From Clostridia bacterium (GTDB lineage: Bacteria; Bacillota; Clostridia; Christensenellales; UBA1242), in assembly GCA_045637805.1 (NCBI GenBank), contig JAZUAE010000014.1, positions 64,651 to 128,650 on the forward strand: a DNA stretch of 64,000 nucleotides. The letters run 5' to 3'. A program made the translations under genes and the position numbers. This document shows, in pieces, positions 4,279 to 47,900 of the stretch. Position 1 is the first letter of the stretch; each line of letters opens with the position of its first letter. The notes under the pieces are model-generated. The model ran no database searches. It saw only the letters and a list, made by a program, of their open reading frames with translations, and was not told the origin of the DNA.

Positions 4279-4966
4279 ATATAGTAGATGGGGGCATGGC
4301 AAAGATTCAATCGAAGATATGGTAAGTAAGGCAAATGAAAGTGGATTAACTAGCCTTGCTATTACTGATCATGGTCCAAAACATATTTTGTTTCCTATTT
4401 CTCTTAAAAATTTACGTAAAGCTAGAAAACAAATAGATGAAATTAATAAGACAAGTAAGACAAAGGTTTATCTTGGTGTAGAGGCTAATCTCATAGGTGG
4501 AGATGGAACTATCGACCTTACAGAGGAACAGTTGAAACTAATAGATGTTTTGCTCGTTGGATATCACATGTGTACGTTTGCAGACTTTGTAGGATTTATT
4601 AATAAAAACAATAATTCAAAAAAACAAATTCAAAAAAACACGCAAGCATATTTAAATATGCTTAACAAATATGATGTAGATATAATAACGCATATTCAAG
4701 AACATATAAAAGTTGACCTGAAGCCTATTGCTGAGTTGTGTGCAAAAAAAGGAACTTTAATTGAAATAAATAATAAGCACTTGCGCTTAGATGCGGACGA
4801 TGCTAAAATTTTAATTGAAAGCGGGTGTAAATTAATCATTAATTCAGATGCCCATTCAAAGGATCGTATAGGAAAAGTTGACAATGCAATTAAATTTATA
4901 GTGGACAACAAAATATCACGAGATAGAGTTGTTAATATTGACAAAGAGTATATTCCAAAGAGGTAA
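4244..4966 (+). CDS. PHP-domain metal-dependent phosphoesterase
   Basis: GDFHTHSEYS...ITDHGP...SDAHS is the His/Asp pattern of the PHP (polymerase and histidinol phosphatase) fold. Overlaps the murB 3' end by 35 nt. Confidence 0.7.
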   Translation: MILSGDFHTHSEYSRWGHGKDSIEDMVSKANESGLTSLAITDHGPKHILFPISLKNLRKARKQIDEINKTSKTKVYLGVEANLIGGDGTIDLTEEQLKLIDVLLVGYHMCTFADFVGFINKNNNSKKQIQKNTQAYLNMLNKYDVDIITHIQEHIKVDLKPIAELCAKKGTLIEINNKHLRLDADDAKILIESGCKLIINSDAHSKDRIGKVDNAIKFIVDNKISRDRVVNIDKEYIPKR

Positions 4967-5938: not shown

Positions 5939-8900
5939 TTTTTCACATTTACATTTACATACTGAATATAGTTTGCTCGATGGTGCCGCAAGAATAAAAA
6001 AAGTTACCAAGGTGGCAAAAGAGATGGGAATGCCAGGTATTGCTATTACTGACCATGGTAATATGTATGGTGTTGTTCAGTTCTATAACGCCTGTGTTGA
6101 CCTTGACAAAGACTATTTTAAGGAGCATGGTCAACCGATTGTAAAACCTATTATCGGTTGTGAATTTTATATTTGTAATGATATCAATGTCAAAAGTGGT
6201 AGGGGTGAGTTTAATCACTTAGTTTTACTTGCAAAAGATGATGTTGGATACAACAATCTCTGTCTGCTCAACACCATAGCCTTTTGTGATGGATTTTATT
6301 ACAAGCCAAGAATAGATTATAAAACTCTTGAAGCGCATCATGAAGGGTTAGTGTGTCTTTCTGCGTGTATCGCTGGTGATGTGCCTCAAGCAATTCTTAG
6401 ACGTGAATTTGACGAGGCTGAAAGACTTATTTTGTGGTATAAATCACTTTTTGGTGATGATTATTATTTTGAAATTCAAAATCATAACCTTGAAGAACAA
6501 ATTGTTGTAAATGAAAAGTTACATGAATATGGAAAGAAATATGGTATTAAATTAGTTGCAACTAATGACGTACATTATATTTATAAAGAAGATGCCGTAA
6601 CACAAGATGTTTTACTTTGTGTGCAAACAGGTAAAACTTATGATGATCCTGACAGATGGCGTTTTGATGGGGATCAATTCTATTTTAAATCAGAAGAAGA
6701 AATGGCAAAGGTCTTTCCAAACGATTTAGAGGCTTTGGAAAATACAAAAGAGATTGTAGATAAGTGCAATTACAAGTTTGTATTTGGACAATATATGTAT
6801 CCTAAATATATTCCGGTAACAGGTCAAACACCTGAGAATTATATGCGCGATTTAGTTGAGGCTGGTTTAAAGAAAAAATATTCGAAAGAAACTGATGAAA
6901 TTCGTGAAAGAATTGAATACGAGTTTAATACTATTAAAAAACTTGGATATATTGAGTATTATTTAATTGTTTGGGATTACATAAATGCTGCAAGAGAAAA
7001 AGGTATTTCTGTTGGTCCTGGACGTGGTAGTGGTGTAGGATCAATTATTGCTTATTTAATTGGAATAACTGATGTGGATCCTATAAAATATGGCTTATTC
7101 TTTGAAAGATTTTTAAACCCAGAACGTGTTAGTGCTCCCGATTTTGACGTTGACTTCCAAGACAACAGACGTGATGAGGTTTTTGATTACGTTAAAGAAA
7201 AATATGGTGAAGGAAAGGTTGCAAAAATTATAACTTTTGGCACCATGGCTGCAAAGAACGCAATCAAAGACGTTGCGAGAGTTTTACGTGTGCCTTATGC
7301 AGAGGTTGATAAGGTAACCAAAGCAATACCTAACAATGTAAAAAGGCCAAATATTATTGCAAAGTGTTTTGGTTTGCATAGAAAAGAAGGTGAGCCTGAC
7401 AATAGTATTCCTGAACTTGTTGAGATATATAATGCAAATCCTGATATAAAAAGGGTCGTTGATATAGCTGACAAACTAGAAGATAGTCCAAGACAAACGG
7501 GTATTCATGCCTGCGGTGTTATTATTGGTCGTGATATATTAGAAGAACATATACCTCTTGCAAAAAATGGTGATATTGTAACTACTCAATTTGTCGGTGG
7601 CGAACTTGAGACATTAGGCCATCTTAAAATGGACTTTTTAGGACTTTGTAACTTGTCTGATATTCAACTTTGTATTAAATATGTTAAGGAAAATCATGGT
7701 GTTGACATTTCTTTTGATGGTTGCACTTATGATGATCAAAAAGTTTACGAACTTATTTCAACTGGAAATACAAAGGGTATGTTCCAGATTGAAAGTCCTG
7801 GCTTCCAAAAATTCTTAAAGGAATTAAAACCAAACTGCTTGGAAGATATTATAGCGGGTGTTAGCTTGTATCGTCCAGGTCCTATGGATAGTATTCCAGA
7901 CTTTATTCACAATAAGCACAATCCACAAGATATTAAATATATAAGCCCGGTTATGGAACCGATTTTAAACGTCACATATGGTTGTATAGTTTACCAAGAG
8001 CAGGTTATGAAAATTGTTCAAGAACTTGCTGGATACACTCTAGGTAGAGCGGATAGTGTGCGTAAGTACATGGGTAAGAAAAAATTAAAAGAACTTCAAG
8101 CTGAAAGACAAGTTTTCTTATACGGCTGTCCAGCAAAAGATGGAAAACCTGCTGTAGATGGTGTTATTAAGCGTGGCGTTGATGAGGCTGTTGCTAATAA
8201 ACTATGGGACGAAATGGAAAAGTTTGGTTCGTATGCGTTTAACAAGTCTCATGCTGCAGCATATTCAGTAGTAACTTATGAAACAGCTTATTTAAAGACA
8301 TATTACGAATCAGAATTCTTAACTGCGCTATTAAATAACCGTATCACAAAATCTGACGAAATTAAGAACTATGTAACTTATATTAAAAGCGAAAAAATTG
8401 AAGTTTTACCTCCAGACATAAATGAAAGTGAAACGTATTTTAAATGTCAAAAAGATGGAAAAATTAGATTTGGATTAGCTGCCCTTAAAAATGTTGGTAT
8501 AGCAGTGGTTGAGTCAATAGTTGAAGAACGTAAGGCAAATGGCAAATTTAAAGATCTTGGCGACTTTTTCCAAAGAGTAGACACATCTCTTGTAAATAAA
8601 AGGAGTATTGAAAGTTTTATCTTAGCTGGTGCTTTTGATTGTTTTGGCTATAAACGTAGTCAGCTTATGGCGGTTTATGATACAGCACTAAACTGTGCAA
8701 TTAAAGATAAAAAATCAAGATTAGCAGGTCAATTTTCTATGTTTGGTGATTTGCTTGCAAATGATGAATCTATAAAAATTGATTATCCAAATATTAATGA
8801 ATATGATTTAAGATTTAAGCTTAAAAAAGAAAAGGAAACGCTTGGAACATACATAAGTGGTCACCCTCTTGATGATTACATTGAAAAGGTGAATACTTTT

Positions 8901-9524
8901 AACTTCAACTCAAGTATGATTGAAGAAATTTCTGACACTGAAGCTGTCGAAGAAATTGATGGGGAAGAGCATCAAAATGTCGTTAGTGATTTGCAGGACG
9001 GTATGAATGTGGTTTGTGGTGGTATTGTTTCTGACGTTCATAAGATGTTTACAAAGAATGGAAACAAGCCTATGGCAGTTATCGCAGTTGAAGATCTTTA
9101 TGGAACATTTGAGGTTATGCTATTTAACAAGATGTATGAAAAGGTTAGAAATGAATTAGCTGAAGATGTAATGCTTACTGTTAAAGGACACTTATCTCTA
9201 CGTGATGGACAAAAACCTATCATTATTGCAGATAGTATTGAGTTTTGGAATGATGATAAATCAGCTGCGGAAAATATGGGAAAACCTATTGAAGTGGCAA
9301 CTAATGCTATAAAAACAAAAAAACTTTATTTGCAATTTGATATACAAAATGAAAATTTAAAAAATGAAGTATTGTCTGTATTAAAAAGTTATAGTGGTAT
9401 CACTCCAGTGTTTGTACAATGGAATAAAAAATTGTATAATATAAATGTATTTACAGAATATAATAAGAACTTACAAATTGAACTTGCTTCTATTATAGGG
9501 GATAATAACATAAAGTTTATTTAG
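5931..9524 (+). CDS. dnaE: DNA polymerase III alpha subunit (DnaE type)
   Basis: 1197 aa with an N-terminal PHP motif (HLHLHTEYSLLDGA...ITDHGNMYG), polymerase core blocks (GPGRGSGVGS, PDFDVDF, FQIES.GF, YRPGPM, NKSHAAAY) and a C-terminal OB region. Start overlaps the whiA stop (ATGGGTAA). Confidence 0.95.
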   Translation: MGNFSHLHLHTEYSLLDGAARIKKVTKVAKEMGMPGIAITDHGNMYGVVQFYNACVDLDKDYFKEHGQPIVKPIIGCEFYICNDINVKSGRGEFNHLVLLAKDDVGYNNLCLLNTIAFCDGFYYKPRIDYKTLEAHHEGLVCLSACIAGDVPQAILRREFDEAERLILWYKSLFGDDYYFEIQNHNLEEQIVVNEKLHEYGKKYGIKLVATNDVHYIYKEDAVTQDVLLCVQTGKTYDDPDRWRFDGDQFYFKSEEEMAKVFPNDLEALENTKEIVDKCNYKFVFGQYMYPKYIPVTGQTPENYMRDLVEAGLKKKYSKETDEIRERIEYEFNTIKKLGYIEYYLIVWDYINAAREKGISVGPGRGSGVGSIIAYLIGITDVDPIKYGLFFERFLNPERVSAPDFDVDFQDNRRDEVFDYVKEKYGEGKVAKIITFGTMAAKNAIKDVARVLRVPYAEVDKVTKAIPNNVKRPNIIAKCFGLHRKEGEPDNSIPELVEIYNANPDIKRVVDIADKLEDSPRQTGIHACGVIIGRDILEEHIPLAKNGDIVTTQFVGGELETLGHLKMDFLGLCNLSDIQLCIKYVKENHGVDISFDGCTYDDQKVYELISTGNTKGMFQIESPGFQKFLKELKPNCLEDIIAGVSLYRPGPMDSIPDFIHNKHNPQDIKYISPVMEPILNVTYGCIVYQEQVMKIVQELAGYTLGRADSVRKYMGKKKLKELQAERQVFLYGCPAKDGKPAVDGVIKRGVDEAVANKLWDEMEKFGSYAFNKSHAAAYSVVTYETAYLKTYYESEFLTALLNNRITKSDEIKNYVTYIKSEKIEVLPPDINESETYFKCQKDGKIRFGLAALKNVGIAVVESIVEERKANGKFKDLGDFFQRVDTSLVNKRSIESFILAGAFDCFGYKRSQLMAVYDTALNCAIKDKKSRLAGQFSMFGDLLANDESIKIDYPNINEYDLRFKLKKEKETLGTYISGHPLDDYIEKVNTFNFNSSMIEEISDTEAVEEIDGEEHQNVVSDLQDGMNVVCGGIVSDVHKMFTKNGNKPMAVIAVEDLYGTFEVMLFNKMYEKVRNELAEDVMLTVKGHLSLRDGQKPIIIADSIEFWNDDKSAAENMGKPIEVATNAIKTKKLYLQFDIQNENLKNEVLSVLKSYSGITPVFVQWNKKLYNINVFTEYNKNLQIELASIIGDNNIKFI

Positions 9525-9533
9525 GGGGAAACT

Positions 9534-10493
9534 ATGAAAAAGATAGCTATACTCACCAGTGGCGGCGATGCTCCTGGTATGAATGCTTGTATAAGAAGTA
9601 TTGTGAGATACGCAACTACTAAAAATATTGAAGTGTTAGGTTTCAAAAGAGGATATCAAGGCTTAATTGAAAACGATTTTGAAGTATTAAATTTTAGAAG
9701 CGTTGGTAATATCTTGCAGCTTGGTGGGACCATTCTTAAAACTAGTCGATCAGAAGAATTTATGACGGAAAATGGATATAAAAAAGCGTTGGCTAATTTA
9801 AGGAAAAACAAGATTGAAGGTCTTATTGTTATAGGTGGCGATGGTTCATATAAAGGTGCAGAAAAATTAGCAGATTCTGGTGTTAAAGTTATTGCAATTC
9901 CAGCTTCTATCGATAACGATTTATATTATACCGATTATACAATAGGTTTTGATTCGGCCGTAAATACCATAATAGAATTAACAAATAATGTAAGAGATAC
10001 ATCTCTTTCTCATGATAGAATTAGTGTAATAGAAGTTATGGGTGCTGGTTGCGGTGATATTGCATTGAATGTTGGTATTGCTTGTGGTGCAGATCAAATA
10101 CTAGTACCTGAAGTAAAAGTTGATTTAAATGAAGTTTATAGAAACATTAAATCTCATTATGAAAATGGCAAAAAATTTAGTATTATAATTGTTAATGAAA
10201 AATTTGCCACAGCAGAAGAAATATCGTCAGACTTACAAAATAAGGTTGGATTAGAGTCAAGACCTCTTGTTGTGGGGCATATTCAAAGAGGTGGTAGCCC
10301 TTCAAGGATAGATAGAATTTTGGCAACAAAATTTGGCGTCTATGCTGTTGATTTGTTGAAAAACGGTGAAACGAATAAAGCTATCGGTGTAAAAGCACAA
10401 AAATTAATTACCACTGATATTGAAAAAGCACTAAAAGGCAATAGAAAGTTTGATATTGAAGCCTATCGTTTAGCCCACAGTTTAACGTATTAA
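9534..10493 (+). CDS. pfkA: ATP-dependent 6-phosphofructokinase
   Basis: LTSGGDAPGMNA, IGGDGSY, IPASIDND and GHIQRGG motifs; 319 aa. Confidence 0.95.
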   Translation: MKKIAILTSGGDAPGMNACIRSIVRYATTKNIEVLGFKRGYQGLIENDFEVLNFRSVGNILQLGGTILKTSRSEEFMTENGYKKALANLRKNKIEGLIVIGGDGSYKGAEKLADSGVKVIAIPASIDNDLYYTDYTIGFDSAVNTIIELTNNVRDTSLSHDRISVIEVMGAGCGDIALNVGIACGADQILVPEVKVDLNEVYRNIKSHYENGKKFSIIIVNEKFATAEEISSDLQNKVGLESRPLVVGHIQRGGSPSRIDRILATKFGVYAVDLLKNGETNKAIGVKAQKLITTDIEKALKGNRKFDIEAYRLAHSLTY

Positions 10494-10525
10494 TGTAAAA
10501 AACGTTTAAAATTTTACAAATAAAA

Positions 10526-10553
10526 AGAAACCACAATTTGTGGTTTCTTTTTT
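10526..10553. terminator. Bidirectional intrinsic terminator shared by pfkA (+) and the Cys-rich peptide gene (-)
   Basis: Perfect 10-bp stem AGAAACCACA / TGTGGTTTCT with a 3-nt loop, flanked by an A-run on the left and a T-run on the right. Confidence 0.65.
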
Positions 10554-10713
10554 AATAATCTTTACTGCAGTAACAGTTGTCGCAACTGCATTCTCTATCG
10601 CAACTACAATCACGACTATAACAGCAACAAGGTGGATCATCATTTCTACCGATTTTATAAATAGATGTTGCACCAACAGCTGCAAGATTTAAGGCTGGTC
10701 TAATTATTTTCAT
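10552..10713 (-). CDS. 53-aa Cys-rich peptide, candidate RiPP precursor (not in the supplied ORF track)
   Basis: My translation of the reverse strand is MKIIRPALNLAAVGATSIYKIGRNDDPPCCCYSRDCSCDRECSCDNCYCSKDY*. The ATG lies 13 nt after the radical SAM stop, with AGGAGG overlapping that stop (TAAGGAGGAGAGCTATATG). A terminator follows the TAA directly. Confidence 0.6.
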   Translation of the reverse strand: MKIIRPALNLAAVGATSIYKIGRNDDPPCCCYSRDCSCDRECSCDNCYCSKDY

Positions 10714-10726
10714 ATAGCTCTCCTCC

Positions 10727-12013
10727 TTACTTTATATATTGTCTCATAGAATTGATTATATTGTCAATTGTATATTCACAATTATAGTGATTTTTATTTA
10801 GAAATCTTGCATTTGGACAACCACCAAGACAAATAGGGAATAATTTGCATTTTTTACATTTGTCATGTATAGGTTGTTCCATAAAGTCTAACATTGCCTT
10901 ATTAAAATATAAACCATTTTGAATATCTCCGATAACTCTATCTTTTAGTCCAAAATCGTGTTCACATTTGTATATTTCGCCAAGAGGACCTATACATAAG
11001 CTATTAATTGTAAATTGATTACACCAAATTTCCTTTGGCATAATTCTTTTTGGTTTTTGGTTTAACCAACTATTAAAGCTATCATCTGCATTTTCAAACT
11101 CTGCAATGGATAAATAGTTCAAAGTTTTACATGATCCAAACAATTTGCCAAGATAGAAGGAAATATTACCATCAATAAATCTAGGATCGTTTTTGAATTC
11201 TGATACAAGAGCTCGTGCATCATCTATATTATCTTTATCAACATTAATACGTAAAGACAAATGTATGTTTTTATCACTTTCAGAAGCATGTTTTAATAAA
11301 TTGAAAATATTAGATTTTGTAACATGATAAGCTTCAGGAATGGTTTTCTTTCTAGCACAGTAATTGTCACACGTTCCATCGAATGTTATTTGATATTCAG
11401 TTATTTTTAACTTATCAGTAATGGTTGGTATAATTTCTTCCTTTAGAAAAAAACCATTAGTTGTCATTTTGCTTCTATATTTTATATTGTTATCTGCACA
11501 AAGTTGTATAAGTTTTTCAGAAAGGGGGATAATGCAGTCTTTGTATGCAAGTAAAGGCTCTCCACCAAACCATGAAACATTTAGTTGCTTTAAATTAGGG
11601 TTTATTTTAATATAATTATCCACATAAGAAACAATATTATTGATGGTATCACAATTCATGGCAGAATATTTTTCATTGTTTTCTTCAAAACAATAGACGC
11701 ATCTGTAATTACATTGTAATGTTGGTGAGATAATTAAATTTAAAAATTCATTATTTAATTTATATTGTAGTTGTTTTTGTTTAAATACTATTTGATTAAA
11801 TTCATCTAAATCTTTATGAACAATAATGCCATTAGAAAGTAGGTCATTGAAAATATTAGGGCAGGTATTTTCGTTAATTTCTTGATTTTGTAATTGGTTT
11901 AATATGTCGTTTTCGAGATTGACAATGGCATCACTTTTTGAGTTCCATATGTAAGTGGTTCCATCATCGCAGTCTTTTATAGGAATATTATAAAAAGAAT
12001 ATTTGTACATCAT
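10727..12013 (-). CDS. Radical SAM enzyme with C-terminal SPASM-type auxiliary cluster domain (peptide-maturase-like)
   Basis: CNYRCVYC (CX3CX2C radical SAM cluster motif) near residue 90. C-terminal Cys cluster ...YKCEHDFG...CKKCKLFPICLGGCPNA (CX2CX5CX3C). 428 aa, typical of the anSME/peptide maturase class. Confidence 0.85.
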   Translation of the reverse strand: MMYKYSFYNIPIKDCDDGTTYIWNSKSDAIVNLENDILNQLQNQEINENTCPNIFNDLLSNGIIVHKDLDEFNQIVFKQKQLQYKLNNEFLNLIISPTLQCNYRCVYCFEENNEKYSAMNCDTINNIVSYVDNYIKINPNLKQLNVSWFGGEPLLAYKDCIIPLSEKLIQLCADNNIKYRSKMTTNGFFLKEEIIPTITDKLKITEYQITFDGTCDNYCARKKTIPEAYHVTKSNIFNLLKHASESDKNIHLSLRINVDKDNIDDARALVSEFKNDPRFIDGNISFYLGKLFGSCKTLNYLSIAEFENADDSFNSWLNQKPKRIMPKEIWCNQFTINSLCIGPLGEIYKCEHDFGLKDRVIGDIQNGLYFNKAMLDFMEQPIHDKCKKCKLFPICLGGCPNARFLNKNHYNCEYTIDNIINSMRQYIK

Positions 12014-12042
12014 ATTATTTTCTCCTCAAACTGTATAAGATA

Positions 12043-12072
12043 TTTATATCATACATAAAAAAGAAGTGTCAA
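12043..12072 (-). promoter_or_regulatory. Sigma-A-type promoter for the radical SAM/peptide operon
   Basis: The reverse strand reads TTGACA, an 18-nt spacer, then TGaTATAAA (extended -10). GAGGAG SD and the ATG at 12013 lie about 25 nt downstream. Confidence 0.45.
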
Positions 12073-12073
12073 T

Positions 12074-12106
12074 GAAAAAAATAGCCAAAGATTTTGTCTT
12101 TGGCTA
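12074..12106 (-). terminator. Intrinsic terminator after the ABC permease gene
   Basis: The reverse strand has stem TAGCCAAAG / CTTTGGCTA followed by a T-run. It separates the ABC operon from the radical SAM operon. Confidence 0.55.
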
Positions 12107-12111
12107 ATTTT

Positions 12112-12918
12112 TTATAAGTTACGCTTTTTATTTATATATCTTTCAATTAATGCAATTAGTCCATACATGACTCCAGCAAGTACACAAAGTACAACTATTG
12201 ATGTCATAACAAGATCTAGTTTAAACACTTGTCCACCATAAACAATTAGATATCCGAGTCCGGCTTTACTTGAAAGATATTCTCCCATTATAACTCCGAC
12301 CCAGCTCATGCCAACATTTATTTTTAGTACACTTATAAAATTTGGTAAGGTCGCTGGTATTATTAGGTGTGTTAATACTTGCATATTGTTTGCACCCATG
12401 GTTTTTAAAAGTTTCTTTTTTTCTTCATCAACTTCTAAGAATCCATTTAGCAAAGAAATCGTTGTGATTACAATACAAATGAGAATTCCCATTGTTACGG
12501 TCGCTTTTGTGCCGATTCCCACCCATACAATAATCAATGGACCTAGTGCAATTTTTGGTAAGCTATTAAGTATTATAAGGTATGGTTCTAGGACACGTCT
12601 TACTGCTGGAATAAGATATAAAATTATTGCTATTAGTGCGCCAAGCAAAGAACTGATTAGAAAAGCCAGTATAGTTTCATAGAGTGTTACACCCATGTGC
12701 TGCCAAAGAGTTCCTTCACTAACTAAATCTATAAAAGTGTTAACGATACGGCTTGGTGAACTAATTAAAAATGGATCCACTATTTGTAAATATGCAATAA
12801 GCTCCCATATACCGATTAGTGATATTAAAAGCAATATTCTAAAAAACTGCACAAAGAATGAATTTCTTTTTAGCTTATTCAAATATTTTTTATGAGAGAA
12901 TGAATAATTCTTTTTCAT
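12112..12918 (-). CDS. ABC transporter permease (NitT/TauT-like family)
   Basis: Polytopic membrane protein about 268 aa long with an EAA-like loop region (KKLLKTMGANNMQVLTHLIIPATLP). ATG 12918 forms an ATGA overlap with the ATPase stop and follows a GGAGG, so I prefer it over the listed 12933. Confidence 0.8.
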   Translation of the reverse strand: MKKNYSFSHKKYLNKLKRNSFFVQFFRILLLISLIGIWELIAYLQIVDPFLISSPSRIVNTFIDLVSEGTLWQHMGVTLYETILAFLISSLLGALIAIILYLIPAVRRVLEPYLIILNSLPKIALGPLIIVWVGIGTKATVTMGILICIVITTISLLNGFLEVDEEKKKLLKTMGANNMQVLTHLIIPATLPNFISVLKINVGMSWVGVIMGEYLSSKAGLGYLIVYGGQVFKLDLVMTSIVVLCVLAGVMYGLIALIERYINKKRNL

Positions 12919-23207: not shown

Positions 23208-24164
23208 ATGAATTATAATAATGTTATAGAAAAATCTATTTCATATAAAAATATTAAAAAAGACCATGAGAGTGGTAGATTTTCTCATGCATTTTTATTT
23301 GTTAGTGAAGATAAGGATTATTTAATCAATTTTGCAAAGAAAGTCAGCCTATTAATTTTAAATAATAACGCTCTTGAAAAAAGAATACAAGACGATGTTT
23401 ATCCAGATGTGATATTGCTTGGAAAAAATAGCAAAATAACTTCTAGTGATGCGTCTTTTATGGCAACGGACGTTTATGTGAAAGGATATGAGAGTGATAA
23501 AAAAATATATATTTTAATTGATTCAGATGAAATGAATGATGAATCACAAAACAAAATATTGAAAACGTTAGAAGAACCACCACACAATGTATATATATTG
23601 ATGCTGGCTCGTAATACAAATTCTCTGCTGCCAACAATTCTAAGCAGGGTTTCTATGATTGAATTAGATCGAATATCTAGTAAAGATATTGAAAGTATGT
23701 TAATTGAAGCGGGTGTAGACAAGAAAAAAGCTGCAGAAGTTGCCCCTTGTAGTGGAAACAATGCAAGACTTGCATTAAAACTTGCTGAGGATAAAAACTT
23801 TAATGCAATGTATGTAAACACCATTTTAATGTTTGAAAAAATGAATTCAAGTAAAGATGTCTTGGCTTTTGCTAATTGTTTTGCGGACAAGACTATTGAT
23901 AAAAAAGAGTGGATAAATCTTGTTATGCTGCTTGCACGCGATTTATTAATGATGAAGTCTAATAAGCAAGAATTGATATTAAATAAGGCAATAGAAGACA
24001 GGTTAAGTTTTGTAGCTAACACTTTTTCTATTACTGCTCTTACAAAAATTATTGAAACTTGTTTGCAATGCCAAGAAGGTTTACTATATAATGTTAATAG
24101 TTCATGCATTGTAGATGAACTTTTACTAAAATTTGTGGAGGCTAAAGTTATATGCAAAAAATAG
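23208..24164 (+). CDS. holB: DNA polymerase III delta-prime subunit
   Basis: SHAFLFVSEDKDY at the clamp-loader P-loop position, the KILKTLEEPP box and SRV (sensor) region; 318 aa. Synteny holB-ricT as in Bacillus. Confidence 0.8.
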   Translation: MNYNNVIEKSISYKNIKKDHESGRFSHAFLFVSEDKDYLINFAKKVSLLILNNNALEKRIQDDVYPDVILLGKNSKITSSDASFMATDVYVKGYESDKKIYILIDSDEMNDESQNKILKTLEEPPHNVYILMLARNTNSLLPTILSRVSMIELDRISSKDIESMLIEAGVDKKKAAEVAPCSGNNARLALKLAEDKNFNAMYVNTILMFEKMNSSKDVLAFANCFADKTIDKKEWINLVMLLARDLLMMKSNKQELILNKAIEDRLSFVANTFSITALTKIIETCLQCQEGLLYNVNSSCIVDELLLKFVEAKVICKK

Positions 24165-25009
24165 TTGGTGTTATTTTTAACGATGCTGGTAAAGCGTATT
24201 ACTATGATCCAGGTAAAGACATGTATGCTGTTGGTGACTATGTTGTTGTGGAGACTGCATCAGACTGCGCTTTGGGAAAGATAGATTTTATAGATAAGAC
24301 CATTGATGAAGAAAAGTTAGAAGAGCCTTTAAAAATGGTTATACGCAAGGCAACATCGAAAGATATAGAAATTAATAAAAAACAAAGAGAAAGAATTCCG
24401 GAGATTATTAAGGTTATAAAATCAAAAGTTAGAGCTTTGGATTTGCAAATGAAAATAGTAGATGCAAACTTTACACTTGATGGGAATAAATTAATAGTAG
24501 AGTTCACTGCTGACGATAGAGTTGATTTTAGACAATTACTTAAAGATCTTGCTGCAACACTTAAGGTGAGAATTGAACTAAAGCAAATAGGTCAACGTGA
24601 TGAGGTCAAAATCAAAGGTGGACTTGGGCCTTGTGGTGAAATGTGTTGCTGCAAAAGATTTTTAAAAGATTTTGAGCACGTAACTGTAAAAATGGCAAAA
24701 AATCAGGGGCTATCGCTATCTCCAACAAAGATAAGTGGGCTTTGTGGTAGACTTATGTGTTGTTTAGCATACGAAAACCAAAATTATGAAGAAATTTTAA
24801 AGCGTATGCCAAAGGTTAATAGTGTTGTACTCACACCAAAAGGCAAAGGGACAGTTGTTTATAATGATCTTTTGAGAGAACTTGTAAGTGTTAAGGAAAT
24901 TCAAAAAGACGACACATTTGTTGTTACTGAATGGAAATTAAGTGATATAAAACAAGTAGAACAAACTGAAAACCATAATAAAAATAATAAAAAAGGGGAT
25001 AAAAAATAA
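24152..25009 (+). CDS. ricT: PSP1-domain regulatory protein RicT (YaaT)
   Basis: PSP1 C-terminal domain with the Cys cluster GPCGEMCCCKRFL...GLCGRLMCCLAYE, located directly after holB. Confidence 0.85.
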   Translation: MQKIVGVIFNDAGKAYYYDPGKDMYAVGDYVVVETASDCALGKIDFIDKTIDEEKLEEPLKMVIRKATSKDIEINKKQRERIPEIIKVIKSKVRALDLQMKIVDANFTLDGNKLIVEFTADDRVDFRQLLKDLAATLKVRIELKQIGQRDEVKIKGGLGPCGEMCCCKRFLKDFEHVTVKMAKNQGLSLSPTKISGLCGRLMCCLAYENQNYEEILKRMPKVNSVVLTPKGKGTVVYNDLLRELVSVKEIQKDDTFVVTEWKLSDIKQVEQTENHNKNNKKGDKK

Positions 25010-25182
25010 TGAGTTATGTAATTAATCAAGATAAATGTATTAAATGTGGAGCTTGCATTAATATGTGTCCAGTTCAAGCAATTAGCATGGTAAATGCTCA
25101 AGTTGTTATTGATCCTAAAAAATGTATTGATTGTGGTACTTGTGCTAGCATTTGTCCAGTAGGGGCTCCTGAGGCTAAGTAG
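25009..25182 (+). CDS. 2x[4Fe-4S] ferredoxin, 57 aa (not in the ORF track)
   Basis: My translation is MSYVINQDKCIKCGACINMCPVQAISMVNAQVVIDPKKCIDCGTCASICPVGAPEAK*. It has two CxxCxxCxxxCP motifs. The ATG overlaps the ricT stop (TAATG) and its stop overlaps the next GTG start. Confidence 0.7.
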   Translation: MSYVINQDKCIKCGACINMCPVQAISMVNAQVVIDPKKCIDCGTCASICPVGAPEAK

Positions 25183-40017: not shown

Positions 40018-41628
40018 TTATCTAACCTTAACTTTTCGTCTAGTAAAGAATATGAATAATGATAATATTGCGAGTGTTGCAGCACCAACAGCGATCAAAG
40101 CGATGGTTGCGGCATTCATCTTTGTATTGATTTTAAATGAACGAGTTACAACATTTCCCATTTCATCAGTGATTTTAACATAGTAAGTGCCTGCTGAATT
40201 GAAAGTAATTTTACCATCGTTTTGTCTATATTCAGGGGTGAGTTGTGAGCCATTAAATATTGTCTCAACTTTGATAGTTCCAGCACCATTAACTGTGAGA
40301 GTTACGTTGTCAGTAGTTGCAGCGTTATTTTCTATACCTGAGATTGAAGCTCTAGCATCAACGACTTGAATTATTGCTGTTGAGGTGTGAGATCCAAATA
40401 TATAATTGCCATCTGAAATATAGTATCTGTTTCTAACTAAACCCGATATATCTTTATCTTCAATTCGGTTAATATTAGATGAGGTATAAATTGTGCCATT
40501 TATAATCTCACCACTTTGTTGTATATCTTTAAAGATGTAAAATTTTGTGGTATAACAATCTATTATATTGTTGTCTTTTTGTAAACTAACAGTGTAATCA
40601 CCATGTTCAGTCAAAACGATTTTATTATCAAGATCTTCTAAATCATTAATCGAGTAATAAGTTTGTTGATTATAGTGATTAGATCCTTCATTAAACGATT
40701 TTGTAATAACAAGTTGGTCAAATAATTGTTTAATAGGATAGGTTAAATTGTTGAGAGATATTGTTATTGATTCATTCACGTATTCATAAGAGGTGACTGC
40801 GTCATGGCCGTTATGAAATGTTCCAGTGGATAAAATGTCACCCGACTCTGTTGTAATGCTTAAGTAAAATTTTGAAAGACCAACGTAAAATTTTTCTTGC
40901 GAGTCTTCGTCTGGATTGATATTGAATGAATATTTTAAATAATTTGCTTTTGAGGAGCCTGTAAAATATGAGCCATCAAAAATTTCTATTGTATATGGAC
41001 CAGCTGCTATTAGTGGTAATACATTGTCGGTTAAAGTGAATTCTGAGTCGTTTGATTTAAAATTTGTTCCATTGTATACTATATCGAATTTTTGTCCATT
41101 ATAGTTCATATTTATGTAGAGTGGGGATTCTACGCTTGCAATGTCATCATTAAATTTTATATTCATATTGTTATATGAAGAGTTGTGTACTGGTGAATAC
41201 ATATTGTTCCAAGAAGCAACACTTGCGCTGTTAAAGTTTATTTTTGTTTGAACAATGTATATAGTTTTAAAGGATATAGTTAATGCAATGCGTTCTCCAT
41301 TTCCAGTATATTCTATATATGTGTAATTACCACCTGATATATTGTTTGTTACGCCATTATATTTATATGTAACTGTAGTAATTGATGTGTTTGTTAGTGT
41401 TAAATTTGAGTTAATATAGAGAGTATTGTTTTTTAAATCTGTTGTTGAATAAACATATCCATTGCTTGAAAGGATAACATTATCAAAAATGACAGTTGAT
41501 TGAGTGGTTTCACTCTCTTCAGCATAAGTTTTTTTAGTAATGCTTTGCATAGGTATAAATGCTGATGCATAAACGCATAAGCAGATAAAAGATATAACAA
41601 CTAAAAACTTAGAAAATTTCTTTTTCAT
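40018..41628 (-). CDS. Surface protein with signal peptide and C-terminal TM anchor (536 aa), first gene of the T4SS-like locus on this side
   Basis: From ATG 41628: MKKKFSKFLVVISFICLCVYASAFIP signal peptide. Asn/Thr/Tyr/Ser-rich, beta-type sequence. C-terminus AATIALIAVGAATLAILSLFIFFTRRKVKVR has no LPXTG. Confidence 0.6.
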   Translation of the reverse strand: MKKKFSKFLVVISFICLCVYASAFIPMQSITKKTYAEESETTQSTVIFDNVILSSNGYVYSTTDLKNNTLYINSNLTLTNTSITTVTYKYNGVTNNISGGNYTYIEYTGNGERIALTISFKTIYIVQTKINFNSASVASWNNMYSPVHNSSYNNMNIKFNDDIASVESPLYINMNYNGQKFDIVYNGTNFKSNDSEFTLTDNVLPLIAAGPYTIEIFDGSYFTGSSKANYLKYSFNINPDEDSQEKFYVGLSKFYLSITTESGDILSTGTFHNGHDAVTSYEYVNESITISLNNLTYPIKQLFDQLVITKSFNEGSNHYNQQTYYSINDLEDLDNKIVLTEHGDYTVSLQKDNNIIDCYTTKFYIFKDIQQSGEIINGTIYTSSNINRIEDKDISGLVRNRYYISDGNYIFGSHTSTAIIQVVDARASISGIENNAATTDNVTLTVNGAGTIKVETIFNGSQLTPEYRQNDGKITFNSAGTYYVKITDEMGNVVTRSFKINTKMNAATIALIAVGAATLAILSLFIFFTRRKVKVR

Positions 41629-41741
41629 ATTTTTTTCCTTACAATGTATTTTAACATAAAAAATTTTTACACGCAAATGAATATAGGCTTATTATTATAT
41701 AATTATTATTAAACATTTTATATTTATACTCGAATTGATGC

Positions 41742-41768: not shown

Positions 41769-43739
41769 TTATTCATCATAATTTAATACAATGTTATTGC
41801 GTTTTCTAATGTCGTAGAAAACTCTTTCTTCATTCAAGCGTTGGCCAGGAATGAAAGGCGTTTCTATACAACCTATCTTATATATGTTTGTACATTTAAA
41901 GTATGGAGTAATTGTTGTTTTGATAGGGAATTTTTGGAATATTTTTGTATAGTTATCGCCGAGTGGTATTTTATCAAGGTCTGAAGGGTAAACAAGTGGA
42001 ACTTGTTGTAAGCTAGTTGTTGTGCCTGATGAGTTGCCACTTTTGTCCTTGCCTTTACTTTCGTTGCTAGATGTAACTTCGATTGTGTATTGACCGAGCT
42101 CCTCAGAGAATTGTTTTCTTGTGTCAAGGTCAGGAGTACCCATATAAATAGTACATTTGCATTGACCACGAACGATAGATGCTACATCTTTTCCGTAGAC
42201 TGTATCAAGCTGAGAATATGATTGTATTGCCATATTTAAATATATCCATCTTGAACGAGCAACGGTTATAAGTTTGTCTAAATTTTGAAGTTTTGGCAAG
42301 TTGGCAAACTCGTCAAGCAAATATACCATAGGGCGTTTTAAATGAGCCATGTGGTCACTTGTAATCTTTTCATTCTTACGAGCCTTGTCAACGAGTTCTT
42401 TATATGCTTGGTTAATACAAAGAGATGCTAAGCTATATCTTGTAATCTTTTCATCAGGTATTTTAATAAAGAATGCTGTAGGCTTTTCGTCCATTTCTGA
42501 AAATTTGATATCGTTTTTGCTTGTTAAGTAACAAATGGCGTTATCTGAGAACATCGAAAGCATTGTTGAAAGTGACGACATATAACCATCTCTAGTTTGT
42601 TTTGCATTAGTTTGTGTAATATTCGCAGAAAGTTGGCGAGTAGGAGATAATGGGCTTCTACCATTAAAGTATTGTTTAACAACCTCAAAGTCATCTTCTT
42701 TATTCATTGCAATTTTATATGCGTTATAGAAATTGTATTTTTCACGGGTCATTCCAAGAGCTTCGTTATCACTATCTTCAAGCATGGCAATAAGCACAGC
42801 ATGGAAATAGTCCTGAGCACCTTGTTCCCATGAACGTGATTGACCATCTGATACAGGACAGATAGCTGTACAAATATCAGTAATATCGTCAAGGCAGCCA
42901 TCGCGAATTTTTGTTTTGTTTACCTCAACTTCGTTTAATGCGTCGCGAAGGGAAGAGAATGCTTTGCCATCAAATTCGTACCATTCGCTATTGTCTACTT
43001 GTCCAACAATGATAAAATCATAGTTTGAAACAGGGTCGTTTGTGTGTTTTAATATCTCGGTTTCAAGGTTTCTTGCTCTTTGCCATCTATCATAAATAGG
43101 TTCTAATGGGTTCCAGTGTTTACTATTATAAGGATCGGCGAGGTCGAGCAGTACAATTTCATAACCACTATCTTTTAATTTTTGGCTATGATGAGCATAA
43201 AGTTCACCCTTTGTGTCTGTTACAAAGAATGAAGGTTTGTTTTTTTGTTCTGATAATATTTGGAGTGATGGTTCAATGAAAGAAACTGTTTTACCTGTAC
43301 CAGTAGCACCGACAATCAAGCAGTGGGAACCGCCAGGTACAAATCTTACTTTAATTTTTCCATTTTTAAGAATTGCACTGAATGGGACAGAACCTACAAG
43401 TGAAAGGTTTTTAACCTCATCAAAGTAAGCACTAACGAATTCTTTATCCATTTCTTTTTCGGTCATAAAGCGTTGATTTTCCATTTTTTCTTTACCCTTA
43501 AGCTTGCTGCTTTTTTTAGGGCTATATGTTGCGACAAGTAGTATAAAAGAAACTGCAAACACAATCATTGCGTAAGTTAAGCTATTTTTTGTAAATAAAT
43601 TTTCTATTACAAGTGTAATAGTAATACTTTCGCCTGATAAAAGAACTGCAAGAAAGCCGCCTAAAACCAAACTGCATAGGATGGCGATTATGCCATAAAT
43701 TAAATATTTTACAAATTTGTTTGATGTCTTTTCACCCAT
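41769..43739 (-). CDS. Type IV secretion coupling protein (VirD4/TraG family ATPase)
   Basis: Two N-terminal TM helices, Walker A LIVGATGTGKT, FFVTDTKGELY, Walker B VYLLDEFANLPKL, then ARSRWIYLNMAIQSYSQLDTVYG, which matches the conserved T4CP block. Confidence 0.85.
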   Translation of the reverse strand: MGEKTSNKFVKYLIYGIIAILCSLVLGGFLAVLLSGESITITLVIENLFTKNSLTYAMIVFAVSFILLVATYSPKKSSKLKGKEKMENQRFMTEKEMDKEFVSAYFDEVKNLSLVGSVPFSAILKNGKIKVRFVPGGSHCLIVGATGTGKTVSFIEPSLQILSEQKNKPSFFVTDTKGELYAHHSQKLKDSGYEIVLLDLADPYNSKHWNPLEPIYDRWQRARNLETEILKHTNDPVSNYDFIIVGQVDNSEWYEFDGKAFSSLRDALNEVEVNKTKIRDGCLDDITDICTAICPVSDGQSRSWEQGAQDYFHAVLIAMLEDSDNEALGMTREKYNFYNAYKIAMNKEDDFEVVKQYFNGRSPLSPTRQLSANITQTNAKQTRDGYMSSLSTMLSMFSDNAICYLTSKNDIKFSEMDEKPTAFFIKIPDEKITRYSLASLCINQAYKELVDKARKNEKITSDHMAHLKRPMVYLLDEFANLPKLQNLDKLITVARSRWIYLNMAIQSYSQLDTVYGKDVASIVRGQCKCTIYMGTPDLDTRKQFSEELGQYTIEVTSSNESKGKDKSGNSSGTTTSLQQVPLVYPSDLDKIPLGDNYTKIFQKFPIKTTITPYFKCTNIYKIGCIETPFIPGQRLNEERVFYDIRKRNNIVLNYDE

Positions 43740-44973: not shown

Positions 44974-47900
44974 ATGTTTAAAATAAGTATTTTAAATAAA
45001 CTCATATCAATTCTTGGTGTATCAACGATTAGTGCTGATAGGACATACGATTGGTGGACTCCACTAAAGCAGGGTGCTTTTAAAGCACTTGTTACAATCT
45101 TTGATCTCTTGGTGAATGCTGCGTATTATGTTCTTAAATTTATTCTAAACATAGTCGACCTTCTTCAATATTTTGTAAAAAGACTTGTTGGATTAGATTT
45201 TTGGGGAACCGAACTGGTTAATGATCCAAATGTGAGCTACCTTGACCATGATATTGTTTTTAGGTTTATTAAAAACGATACTGTTCAAAGAGTATTCACA
45301 TATATGCTTGGCATTTTTGTTGTTTTACTTATTGTTTTTACAATTATTGCGATTATCAAAAGTGAATATTCTTATGCTACAGGCTCAGCGAAAGATAATT
45401 CAAAAAAGGGAATTGTTGGAAAATCACTCAGAGCTATTTTAATGGTAATTCTAGTTCCGATACTTTTAATAGTTGGAATCATGGCGTCTAACGCCGTACT
45501 TCAAGGCATTGTAAATGCTTTCAACTTAAATAGAGACATTACATTTGGTGGTCAAGTGTTTGTTGCTTCTTCTTATGGGGCAAACAAATACCGAAACTAT
45601 GGAAATGGTGAATATAGACTGCCAACATCAACAAGTATTGTTTTATACTATAGCACAGATGGTAGTGGGAATATTATTTCGAATACAATTAGTACGGAAT
45701 ATTCAAGAGATAAAAAATCAATAGAATTTAATACATCTGTTCCTGATGTTAACCCAATGAATTATGGAAAGAAAAAGAAAGTTACGGGCTTTTCGTTTAA
45801 AAGACCATCTTCAAATGCTGCTAATAATTCTTCAACCAAAAACAATCCTACATATTTCTGGAAAGCGTATCATGAAGGGCAATATGGTGAACAAGAACAG
45901 ACAGTTCAGTATGAGATTCTTAAATATTATTTAAAAGACATCATGCATTATACAGATGTTAAAGAATACAAAGATGTGTCATTACATGATCTAGACGGTA
46001 GTCATGAACTAATTGGTTATATTTACAATAGCTGGTTATTTAATGAGTATATGACTCAAGTTATGAGTTTTGAAGATTCAGTTGTTTCCACAAGGGTTGG
46101 CTTTACAAGTAGTTATGGTACGCGATATGATTCAGCTTTAACATATAAAAACAATCAAGTTTGGGCAGAAAGATATGATGGTGGTGAGGAAGGATTTGTT
46201 GCTCTAAGAAGTGAATACAAAGTTATGGGCGATTTTATGGACTTTATGGTAGAAAACAATCTTTCTTGCTCTATTGTTGATATAACAAATAATGAAATTG
46301 ATTGGAGTAAAGTGCCAACAGAAATCTCTAGGTATTATAACACACTCGATAATAAGATAAACCAGTTTATGGTTGAGTATGTTAATGAGGGATATGTTGT
46401 ATATACACCAAGGTGGAATAAAGAGTCTGAACTTGAAGGTTCAATTTACATTATGTGTTATAAAGATATCAACACAAAAAAATATGTACCTGTACTTGCG
46501 AACACAGTGCAAGAGGTTCAGCTTGCAACTATAAACGGAGTGGCTGCTGGCACGGATACTTACAAATTTGAATCTGATAGCCTTGGTAGTAAATATACAG
46601 GATTTATTATTGCTCGCGGTGGATTTACTGGAGAGAATAAATCATTTGCGGATGCTGATTATCCAACATATATTTCTGCAACAACAACACTGAAAAACGA
46701 AAATGGTTTAATAGCAGAAGTGAAACTTACTGATGCATACAAAGTAGATACAACATTTACGTACGCTGAATTTGATTTTATAAAAGTTATTGGTGGTGAG
46801 GGGTATTTACCAAATAGAATAGAGACAAACGCGTTTATTGAGAAAATTGAAGATGACACAGAAATTCCAAATAAAGCAAATAGCTACTATTATTACTATC
46901 AATGGAAAGATGATCGCCCTCTAACATTAAAAGATGAAATAAACAATATAAATGAAACAGTTAAAGTAGGTGTTAATGGTAGAGAAAAACCATTTAAAGA
47001 TGTGTTCTACTATGATCCTGATACGCCTGCAAATACTGCTGACGACATATCTTGGGAAGTAACAGGATATTCTTATGTGAATGAATATGGGAATAATGTT
47101 TATGGTTTTACAGCAGAAATAGATGGCTCTGTTCGCGGATTCTTACTTGAACATGACGCTGAAACAAATACTCTATCATTTATCAGATGTGATGATTTCT
47201 ATTATGTATACTGGAACGATGAAGATGGAGGATATTACTATTTATTTCAAGATGGGACTTTTCAACCAGACATTGATCCTTATACAAATGATAAAGGTGA
47301 AAAGGTTGATGTTGCCATTTTCAACTTCTATAACATGACACTTGAAGGTGTTGAAGAAGATGATACTGACGTGAAAACTGCTACATATAGCGTTGAAGGG
47401 TTTGTATACAACTCTTCGTATGTTGCCAAACTTGCAATTTACAATCCAAGTGATCTTGGTGCTGCGGACTATATTGTCGATGGAAAGAATTACTATAACA
47501 CGAATAGATTTTATGATACAGCATTAATTTTTGACAAAAAGTGCGATGGTTTCATTTATAAGATAGATTACTACAATTTCTATACTTTTAAAAATCTTAA
47601 TGGAGAGATAAAAACATACAATTATAAATCGTCAGATAATCCTAACACCATTGCTGATGAAAGAATAGAAAATGCTACACCTTTAAAATCGAAAACTGGA
47701 AGGGTTATGTTTAGCGATATTCGTCTTGAGAGATGGGAGAGTGGTTCAAATTACAAATTTCCAAAAACTATAACCTTTTCTGATCCGCATATTGTGTTCT
47801 ATCTAGATAGTTCATTAAGTGCTGAAAGATTGTACAGTGAAGGGAAAATTAGTTTAGAAAATGGAGACTATGAGGCACTACTTGAAAAAGCTGCTGAATG

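Follow-up and report, generated by a model that had tools for sequence, protein, structure and literature searches.

Within the 64,000-nucleotide stretch of DNA analysed here (contig JAZUAE010000014.1, positions 64,651 to 128,650; hereafter the window), which comes from an uncultured gut Clostridia lineage with a GC content of 31.5%, a two-gene cassette of 1.5 kb lies on the minus strand between pfkA and the operon of an ABC importer. The first gene (10727-12013) specifies a radical S-adenosylmethionine (SAM)/SPASM enzyme of 428 amino acids (aa), a predicted peptide maturase belonging to a clade without a name. It is followed by an open reading frame (ORF; 10552-10713) for a 53-aa peptide, MKIIRPALNLAAVGATSIYKIGRNDDPPCCCYSRDCSCDRECSCDNCYCSKDY, with nine Cys and six Asp residues. 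Exactly this peptide had been claimed at this position by the original prediction, which was made from the sequence alone. It can be divided into a leader of approximately residues 1-28 (MKIIRPALNLAAVGATSIYKIGRNDDPP; 10630-10713) and a Cys/Asp-rich core, residues 29-53 (CCCYSRDCSCDRECSCDNCYCSKDY; 10555-10629). We consider it very probable that the two genes specify a genuine precursor/maturase pair of the type that yields RiPPs (ribosomally synthesised and post-translationally modified peptides).

The enzyme gene ends with a TAA codon at 10727-10729 and the ATG of the peptide gene lies at 10711-10713, leaving a gap of 13 nt. The Shine-Dalgarno sequence of the peptide gene, AGGAGG (10722-10727), overlaps the final base of that TAA and is kept in L081, a syntenic contig. 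Both the spacing and the overlap had been described correctly, and from them we infer that enzyme and peptide may be co-translated. The enzyme gene has a Shine-Dalgarno sequence of its own, GAGGAG (12022-12027), situated 8 nt 5' of its ATG. Further upstream on the same strand is a putative sigma-70-type promoter (12043-12072) composed of a -35 element TTGACA (12067-12072), an 18-nt spacer and an extended -10 element TGaTATAAA (12043-12051). The pair had been credited with this promoter. The motif is present, but it was missed by a strict scan which demands a T at position 6 of the -10 hexamer (here TATAAA), and promoter-like sites in this AT-rich window are not above chance (15 versus 13.7 in shuffled sequence). 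The promoter is thus plausible rather than proven.

Stable hairpins occur on both sides of the pair, as had been proposed. The first (12075-12113, minus strand) is the putative terminator of the upstream ABC-importer operon; it marks the boundary of the cassette and lies outside it. Its central part (12082-12106; RNA fold of -16.2 kcal/mol, z = -5.7) is among the four sites returned by a terminator scan for which 0.5 were expected. The second (10522-10552; -16.4 kcal/mol, z = -4.9, with 0/200 shuffles as stable) is a candidate intrinsic terminator at the end of the bicistron, bidirectional and shared with the convergent pfkA. The intergenic region which holds the promoter (12014-12111) is 92% identical to that of L081, versus 78% for coding DNA, and the region after the peptide gene (10494-10551) is 88% identical where the surrounding coding DNA shows 76-82%. 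The promoter and terminator DNA flanking the cassette therefore appears to be under unusually strong constraint. Of the evidence for these regulatory elements, the high identity is the strongest at hand.

Comparison with L081 also bears on the reality of the peptide gene. This contig carries, in order, valS, the ABC importer, the radical SAM gene, a 54-aa ORF, pfkA and dnaE, and DNA identity to the window is even over the whole syntenic block (76-82%). The product of its 54-aa ORF (P0122) is an ortholog of the peptide with 72% identity. Where the two peptide genes differ in nucleotide sequence, the changes number 10/3/21 at codon positions 1/2/3, a distribution like that of the enzyme gene (76/47/165). 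At the protein level housekeeping products are 85-90% identical, the radical SAM enzyme 76% and the peptide 72%; selection on the pair is purifying, though more relaxed or diversifying. When both strands of the window (128 kb) were searched, the peptide was the sole ORF with leader plus Cys residues and the enzyme the sole CX3CX2C protein of at least 200 aa; additional precursor or radical SAM genes elsewhere in the window were looked for and none was found. Shine-Dalgarno-like sequences precede 19/19 peptides of the family by 5-12 nt. Gene callers miss the precursor in about half of the loci (e.g. L082, L085, L169 and L170).

The contigs of eleven enzyme homologs (34-76% identity), taken from unrelated genomic contexts, were sampled. 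All 11 have an adjacent ORF on the same strand which specifies a leader of the form M-x-[IV]-[IVL]-[KRQ] and a Cys/Asp-rich core. It usually begins 11-71 nt downstream of the enzyme gene, and twice it lies upstream; in L082, L083, L086, L087 and L169 there are two to five such ORFs per locus. As a background control we used 1.9 Mb of related Clostridia DNA (valS loci, both strands), in which three ORFs with this leader and three Cys residues were found, equivalent to 0.005 expected per 3-kb flank. The small ORF is consequently kept beside homologous enzymes in 11/11 sampled loci versus 0.005 per locus expected, and its conservation next to related enzymes, on which the original prediction depended, is borne out.

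The only segment conserved throughout the family is the extreme N-terminus, M-x-[IV]-[IVL]-[KRQ], as expected of a leader. The cores are about 10-50 residues long and are built of C-x-C-D(-x-x) units, as in peptide P0128 (CSCDRE-CGCDSY-CRCDRE-CSCDRND). Core statistics were drawn from 24 non-redundant peptides and 2000 composition-preserving shuffles. Cys accounts for 23.7% of core residues, Asp for 18.6% and Tyr for 7.9%. Asp is the commonest residue at positions C+1 (34%) and C+3 (42%), and Cys recurs at C+2 (32%) and C+6 (40%), with 13% at C+5; the periodicity is thus +2 and +6, and the Cys-every-fifth pattern of CefB-type peptides is not seen. The motifs C.CD (44 observed versus 8.1 in shuffles), C..D (78 versus 34) and CD (63 versus 36) were each reached by 0/2000 shuffles. 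In the transposed order DC (25 versus 36) falls below the shuffle mean and D.C (30 versus 35) lies at it, neither being enriched. Of the 24 peptides, 21 end in Asp or Tyr.

A profile search of the peptide, suggested together with the original prediction, matched no known family. The window peptide has no NCBIfam match at E up to 1, ten family peptides have none at E up to 10, the SCIFF precursor model TIGR03973 does not match, which places the peptide outside that family, and Pfam likewise gave nothing. A word-indexed profile search returned nine called proteins, named by no source. When 1.84 billion representative proteins were searched exhaustively with a hidden Markov model (HMM), all that came back were seven of the eight input sequences, with no further members. 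By these searches the precursor family is rare, and gene callers mostly overlook it. No description of the C-x-C-D core motif was found in the models or literature searched.

The enzyme contains the radical SAM motif CNYRCVYC (C101-x3-C105-x2-C108; 11690-11713), invariant in 48/48 clade members, and a C-terminal SPASM auxiliary-cluster region (10778-11023), with sites for two auxiliary clusters, which can be written C331-x13-G-x4-C350 ... C386-x2-C389-x5-C395-x3-C399 ... C412. The CX2CX5CX3C cluster within it (C386, C389, C395 and C399) is held by CKKCKLFPICLGGC. Both Cys motifs had been recognised in the earlier reading and are present. The seven SPASM residues C331, C350, C386, C389, C395, C399 and C412 are likewise invariant in 48/48 members, and an eighth Cys, C340, is found in 43/48. 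The SPASM domain model TIGR04085 matches residues 331-411 [50.8 bits, cut-off 27] and Pfam PF04055 scores 33.5 [cut-off 29.5]; the Pfam SPASM model PF13186 has no match to the enzyme.

Comparison with the NCBIfam maturase models, which had been recommended as a check, gave full-length matches (residues 4-420 of 428), all below the equivalog cut-offs. The top alignments were to the Clo7bot maturase TIGR04334 [186.5 bits, cut-off 600], TIGR04463, "rSAM_vs_C_rich" [171.3 bits, cut-off 525], and the Cys-every-fifth maturase CefB, NF038107 [144 bits, cut-off 600]. FlmE/OhkG NF052473 follows [133 bits, cut-off 500] with a best stretch of only residues 4-270, and the anaerobic sulfatase maturase (anSME) model TIGR03942 scores 55 bits [cut-off 349]. 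These scores place the enzyme outside all five families. Clo7bot, TIGR04463 and CefB are also the best matches of all 48 clade members, the lowest E-values being 3.8e-59 on Clo7bot and 5.2e-61 on TIGR04463. Because none of the 48 betters 5e-61 on any equivalog, the whole clade lies outside the named families. It comprises about 50 sequence clusters and no curated model names it. Full-length homologs are graded from 76% to about 30% identity (576 matches). Among the matches listed from species-representative genomes and JGI metagenomes homologs have at most 35% identity, and plasmid and phage collections yielded only homologs of at most 28.5%, called "radical SAM protein" or lacking annotation. 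Neither partner is claimed by an NCBIfam or Pfam equivalog or family model, in agreement with the earlier reading, which had been able to name no described family.

The AlphaFold2 prediction, for which the clade alignment was used, is confident (pLDDT 93.5, pTM 0.90). Its top Foldseek matches in the PDB are the radical SAM/SPASM enzymes CteB, TigE, SuiB, anSME and ChlB. CteB, which is also the best PDB match by sequence, aligns at full length including its RiPP recognition element (RRE) [E 2e-15, TM 0.64-0.68, 457-472 aligned columns]; anSME aligns over only about 377 columns, since it is without the N-terminal domain. In the models residues 1-85 (11759-12013) consist of three or four strands and then three helices, and we predict that they constitute an RRE-like, leader-binding domain. 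Modelled alone (pLDDT 87.7), this domain gave its best PDB matches with TigE, in the N-terminal part of that enzyme [TMq 0.69, rmsd 3.3 A, E 4e-3], and with TbiB1, a lasso-peptide RRE crystallised with its leader [probability 0.97, E 9e-3]. Further down the ranking, where matches are no longer significant (E about 0.5-2), ThcOx and LynD also appear.

As far as sequence comparison can tell, the pair is of a standard kind, a radical SAM/SPASM enzyme with a Cys-rich precursor, and represents a new, unnamed family. With Clo7bot, TIGR04463 and CefB it shares a full-length alignment, the same three-part architecture and short Cys-patterned peptide partners. It differs in that the window enzyme scores far below the cut-offs and the family peptides match no NCBIfam precursor model; with respect to CefB, the window core is composed of C-x-C-D hexads and not of Cys at every fifth position. 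The ranthipeptide freyrasin (PapA/PapB) has six S-C(beta) thioethers of the Cys-X3-Asp type. Like the window pair it involves a radical SAM/SPASM enzyme, a leader-dependent substrate and repeated Cys ... Asp with Cys N-terminal, but the window family has CX2D and CX0D spacings in a two-Cys hexad where freyrasin has CX3D. PapB nevertheless tolerates Cys-Xn-Asp with n = 0-6, which covers both CX2D and CD, and does not process the transposed Asp..Cys order (PMC9413430). The SCIFF pair CteA-CteB (thermocellin) resembles the window pair as a minimal two-gene cassette of Clostridia with no linked protease or exporter, and through the structural and sequence match to CteB. In the window the gene order is reversed, the peptide being downstream, and unlike the widely conserved SCIFF the cassette is sporadic and absent at this site from the nearest relatives. 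QhpD, like PapB a radical SAM enzyme known to form Cys-Asp or Cys-Glu thioethers, is also of the SPASM type (PMC11002830), but acts on a protein subunit rather than on a small leader-plus-core peptide.

The best explanation, in which we have good though not complete confidence, is a two-gene RiPP cassette operating through leader binding and Cys cross-linking. A bicistronic mRNA would extend from approximately 12040 to the hairpin at 10522-10552, with the maturase specified first and the precursor translated from its own strong Shine-Dalgarno sequence. The RRE-like domain would bind the M-x-[IV]-[IVL]-[KRQ] leader. The [4Fe-4S] cluster of the CX3CX2C motif would cleave SAM to give a 5'-deoxyadenosyl radical, which would take a hydrogen atom from the core residue that serves as acceptor. 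A core Cys thiolate, presumably held at a SPASM auxiliary cluster as in CteB, would then form the C-S bond with a loss of 2 Da per link. Repetition of these steps along the C-x-C-D(-x-x) repeats would give a small, acidic, multiply cross-linked peptide. The cassette has no linked protease or exporter, so that the leader would be removed and the peptide exported, if at all, by unlinked functions, as with SCIFF.

Thioether chemistry of some kind is favoured on balance. Repeats in which Cys precedes Asp suggest Cys-to-Asp, ranthionine-like cross-links, with Asp as the likeliest acceptor through S to C-beta as in PapB and QhpD. We prefer Asp C-beta because no residue is coupled to Cys more tightly than Asp, because the coupling is directional (Cys first, the orientation needed by PapB), and because PapB accepts such spacings and is, with QhpD, a known enzyme for this link; even so, a Cys-to-Asp ranthionine specifically is put forward only tentatively. 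Still more speculative is the idea that the hexad is the substrate for an undescribed cross-link pattern, for instance a small-ring ladder (Cys-X2-Asp and/or adjacent Cys-Asp ranthionines, with two sulfurs per hexad) or some other radical change of Asp or Tyr.

Several observations weigh against this interpretation. A hexad contains two Cys residues and, as a rule, a single Asp, which leaves some of the Cys unexplained by Cys-Asp pairing, and the freyrasin spacing C...D is not enriched (27 versus 32, at the shuffle mean). The enzyme falls far short of the ranthisynthase PapB model NF047865 [71 bits, cut-off 340, over the radical SAM core only], the SCIFF maturase model ScfB TIGR03974 [60 bits, cut-off 425] and QhpD [60.5 bits, cut-off 453], and belongs to none of these three families by these scores. 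By analogy with anSME, C340 might fully ligate Aux I. Pfam PqqD and other sequence models do not detect an RRE, and the structural matches of the isolated domain are weak (E 4e-3 to 9e-3); the RRE assignment is for these reasons a structural one, of moderate strength. No exporter, protease or immunity gene is linked to the cassette, and a literature search found no published chemistry for the nearest named relatives, Clo7bot, TIGR04463 and CefB.

A pair of the same composition might instead involve a sactisynthase, which would join Cys sulfur to the alpha-carbon of the acceptor and so give a sactipeptide instead of a ranthipeptide. The architecture of the enzyme is just as compatible with this. 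Sactisynthases are sequence-divergent and polyphyletic, so that distance from the known ones is no exclusion, and a sactipeptide with a CxCxC-type core, StsA, has been described (PMC10288494). The strong directional coupling of Cys to Asp is, however, the signature of the beta-carbon Asp systems PapB and QhpD, and in sactipeptides a hairpin arrangement usually puts a long distance between acceptor and donor Cys (PMC11002830); we regard a sactisynthase here as unlikely. Rather less likely again is chemistry other than thioether formation, such as C-C or C-O links to Tyr, epimerisation or modification of Asp, with the Cys residues left free for metal or disulfides. Enzymes of the same fold do differ greatly in their chemistry: TigE produces cyclopropylglycine, and a Lys-Trp C-C link is made by SuiB. 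The closest families with a name are uncharacterised, and Tyr is both frequent in the cores and, with Asp, prevalent at the C-terminus. Against this, Cys is the most conserved feature of the core, its C+2, C+6 periodicity being the repeat itself, and each of the top three HMM matches is a maturase whose peptide partner is defined by its Cys residues.

The remaining alternative would deny a RiPP pair altogether, the 53-aa ORF being spurious or an unrelated Cys-rich protein and the enzyme maturing a sulfatase, a cofactor or some other substrate. In its favour one may cite that the peptide has no database family, that gene callers skip the ORF in about half of the loci, and that in L083 a gene of the PF00884 "Sulfatase" family lies at a distance of 2 kb. 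On the other hand no sulfatase gene is present in the window or in the loci other than L083, the substitution pattern of the peptide gene is of the coding type, and both the co-occurrence with the enzyme (11/11 against 0.005 expected) and the Shine-Dalgarno-like sequences before 19/19 peptides are difficult to reconcile with a spurious ORF. The HMM scores (55 bits on an anSME model whose cut-off is 349) together with the RRE-like domain, which anSME lacks, led us to reject anSME or another non-peptide radical SAM enzyme as an identification, as the original prediction would have it; the best full-length models are maturases of Cys-rich peptides and the fold is that of CteB, TigE and SuiB. A reading without a RiPP pair is strongly disfavoured and in our estimation very improbable. 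The preferred reading, a precursor/maturase pair related in type to the sactipeptide, ranthipeptide and SCIFF systems as originally proposed, is supported by co-occurrence, architecture and coding pattern.

At 155 more distant loci (23-35% identity) an adjacent ORF with a leader M-[EK]-[IV]-[IL]-... and a different Cys-containing core was found in 28, a few of these ORFs being false positives; other distant loci, mostly of Bacteroidota, have GG-type leaders. The C-x-C-D branch extends at least to a Christensenellaceae enzyme with 33% identity (L001). The window pair is thus one branch of a broad superfamily with a common leader type and diversified cores. The best homolog from a cultured organism (L252, the Bacillus cereus megaplasmid NZ_CP139215; 28% identity) is annotated only as "radical SAM protein". 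It is followed by an unannotated 29-aa ORF (4364-4453) containing MEYIVKPITLNPKDNSDRLECGIKFN, with a similar leader and a single Cys, and this pair could be a tractable distant model.

The nearest species representative is a metagenome-assembled genome from the Hadza gut (L174), with ValS 79% and DnaE 85% identical. In this genome the ABC importer operon lies directly after dnaE, as it does in L172 and L178, which are more distant. The spacer in L174 (3042-3115) is about 70 nt long; a single bidirectional terminator lies in it, and remnants of pfkA, the peptide gene or the radical SAM gene are absent. Since the junction of dnaE and the ABC importer is without the cassette in these relatives, the cassette is lineage-specific at this site. 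Relative to all three the indel consists of pfkA plus the cassette, three genes in all (9534-12013). The pair had been described as a two-gene island: the hairpins do bracket it, but as the indel includes pfkA this description is not quite proven. Elsewhere the cassette is often beside mobile-element genes: L082 has a resolvase, L087 has TraG/FtsK, and L171 has IS110, recombinase and integrase genes. A functional link to the adjacent NMT1-type ABC importer was considered and rejected, there being a strong terminator between the two; related genomes have the operon but not the cassette, and no such transporter occurs at the other ten cassette loci except the syntenic L081.

Some further features of the homologous loci may be recorded. 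L082 (5001-10497), beside the resolvase, has a larger version of the system: the maturase (52% identity) is followed by four tandem precursor-like ORFs (6301-7036), a second radical SAM gene (7128-8474), an ORF of 103-108 aa (8459/8474-8785), a C-x-C-D repeat peptide (8778-8981) and a third radical SAM gene (9226-10497). A Metallophos (PF00149) protein of about 230 aa adjoins the cassette in 3/11 loci (L086 611-2725, L170 1885-2926 and L087 5914-6597); upstream of it in two of them is an ASCH-domain protein, directly adjacent in L170 and with an acetyltransferase gene between in L086. The Metallophos neighbour could reflect common ancestry of the loci or an accessory function. L169 (4583-5602) and L170 (4428-5465, minus strand) have a second, shorter radical SAM protein of 339-345 aa with PF04055 and Fer4_12, convergent to and directly after short CCDDCD-type precursors. 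Downstream of the cassette in L168 (4699-5699) there are Pfam matches to AAA_14/DUF4143, CTD10 (faint) and MC6, domains seen in conflict or defence systems, and WYL/WCX and HsdM genes are found near the cassette in L086.

The window itself contains two other items of note. A block resembling a conjugative element (39200-62000) is situated about 28 kb from the cassette with no evident link to it. Its genes include one for a type IV secretion system coupling protein (41769-43739, minus strand) and one for a VirB4/TraG-type ATPase (50618-53380), together with two giant ORFs without Pfam match (44974-50562, 1862 aa; 53411-60289, 2292 aa) and a 552-aa ORF, also without match (40018-41676). A 57-aa ORF on the plus strand (25009-25182), below usual ORF size cut-offs, has two CxxCxxCxxxCP motifs and resembles a 2x[4Fe-4S] ferredoxin; its start lies inside the stop codon of the upstream ORF 24152-25009.

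Radical SAM/SPASM enzymes encoded beside Cys-rich peptides are a well-established paradigm of genome mining, and thousands of such pairs are uncharacterised. Some 15,000 RRE-associated radical SAM enzymes have been listed (PMC10288494), and 78% of the RiPP precursor families of the human microbiome are uncharacterised (PMC11953309). Against this background the present pair is useful rather than surprising to a specialist, being compact, tractable and from uncultured gut Clostridia. The C-x-C-D repeat gives a specific prediction, that of Cys-to-Asp thioethers with rings smaller than those of freyrasin. If the hexad does prove to be the substrate for an undescribed cross-link pattern, it would define a new RiPP class made by a radical SAM clade beside Clo7bot, TIGR04463 and CefB, and could provide by analogy the first chemistry for those families. 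Solving the chemistry of this pair could shed light on the uncharacterised neighbouring families of Cys-rich-peptide maturases.

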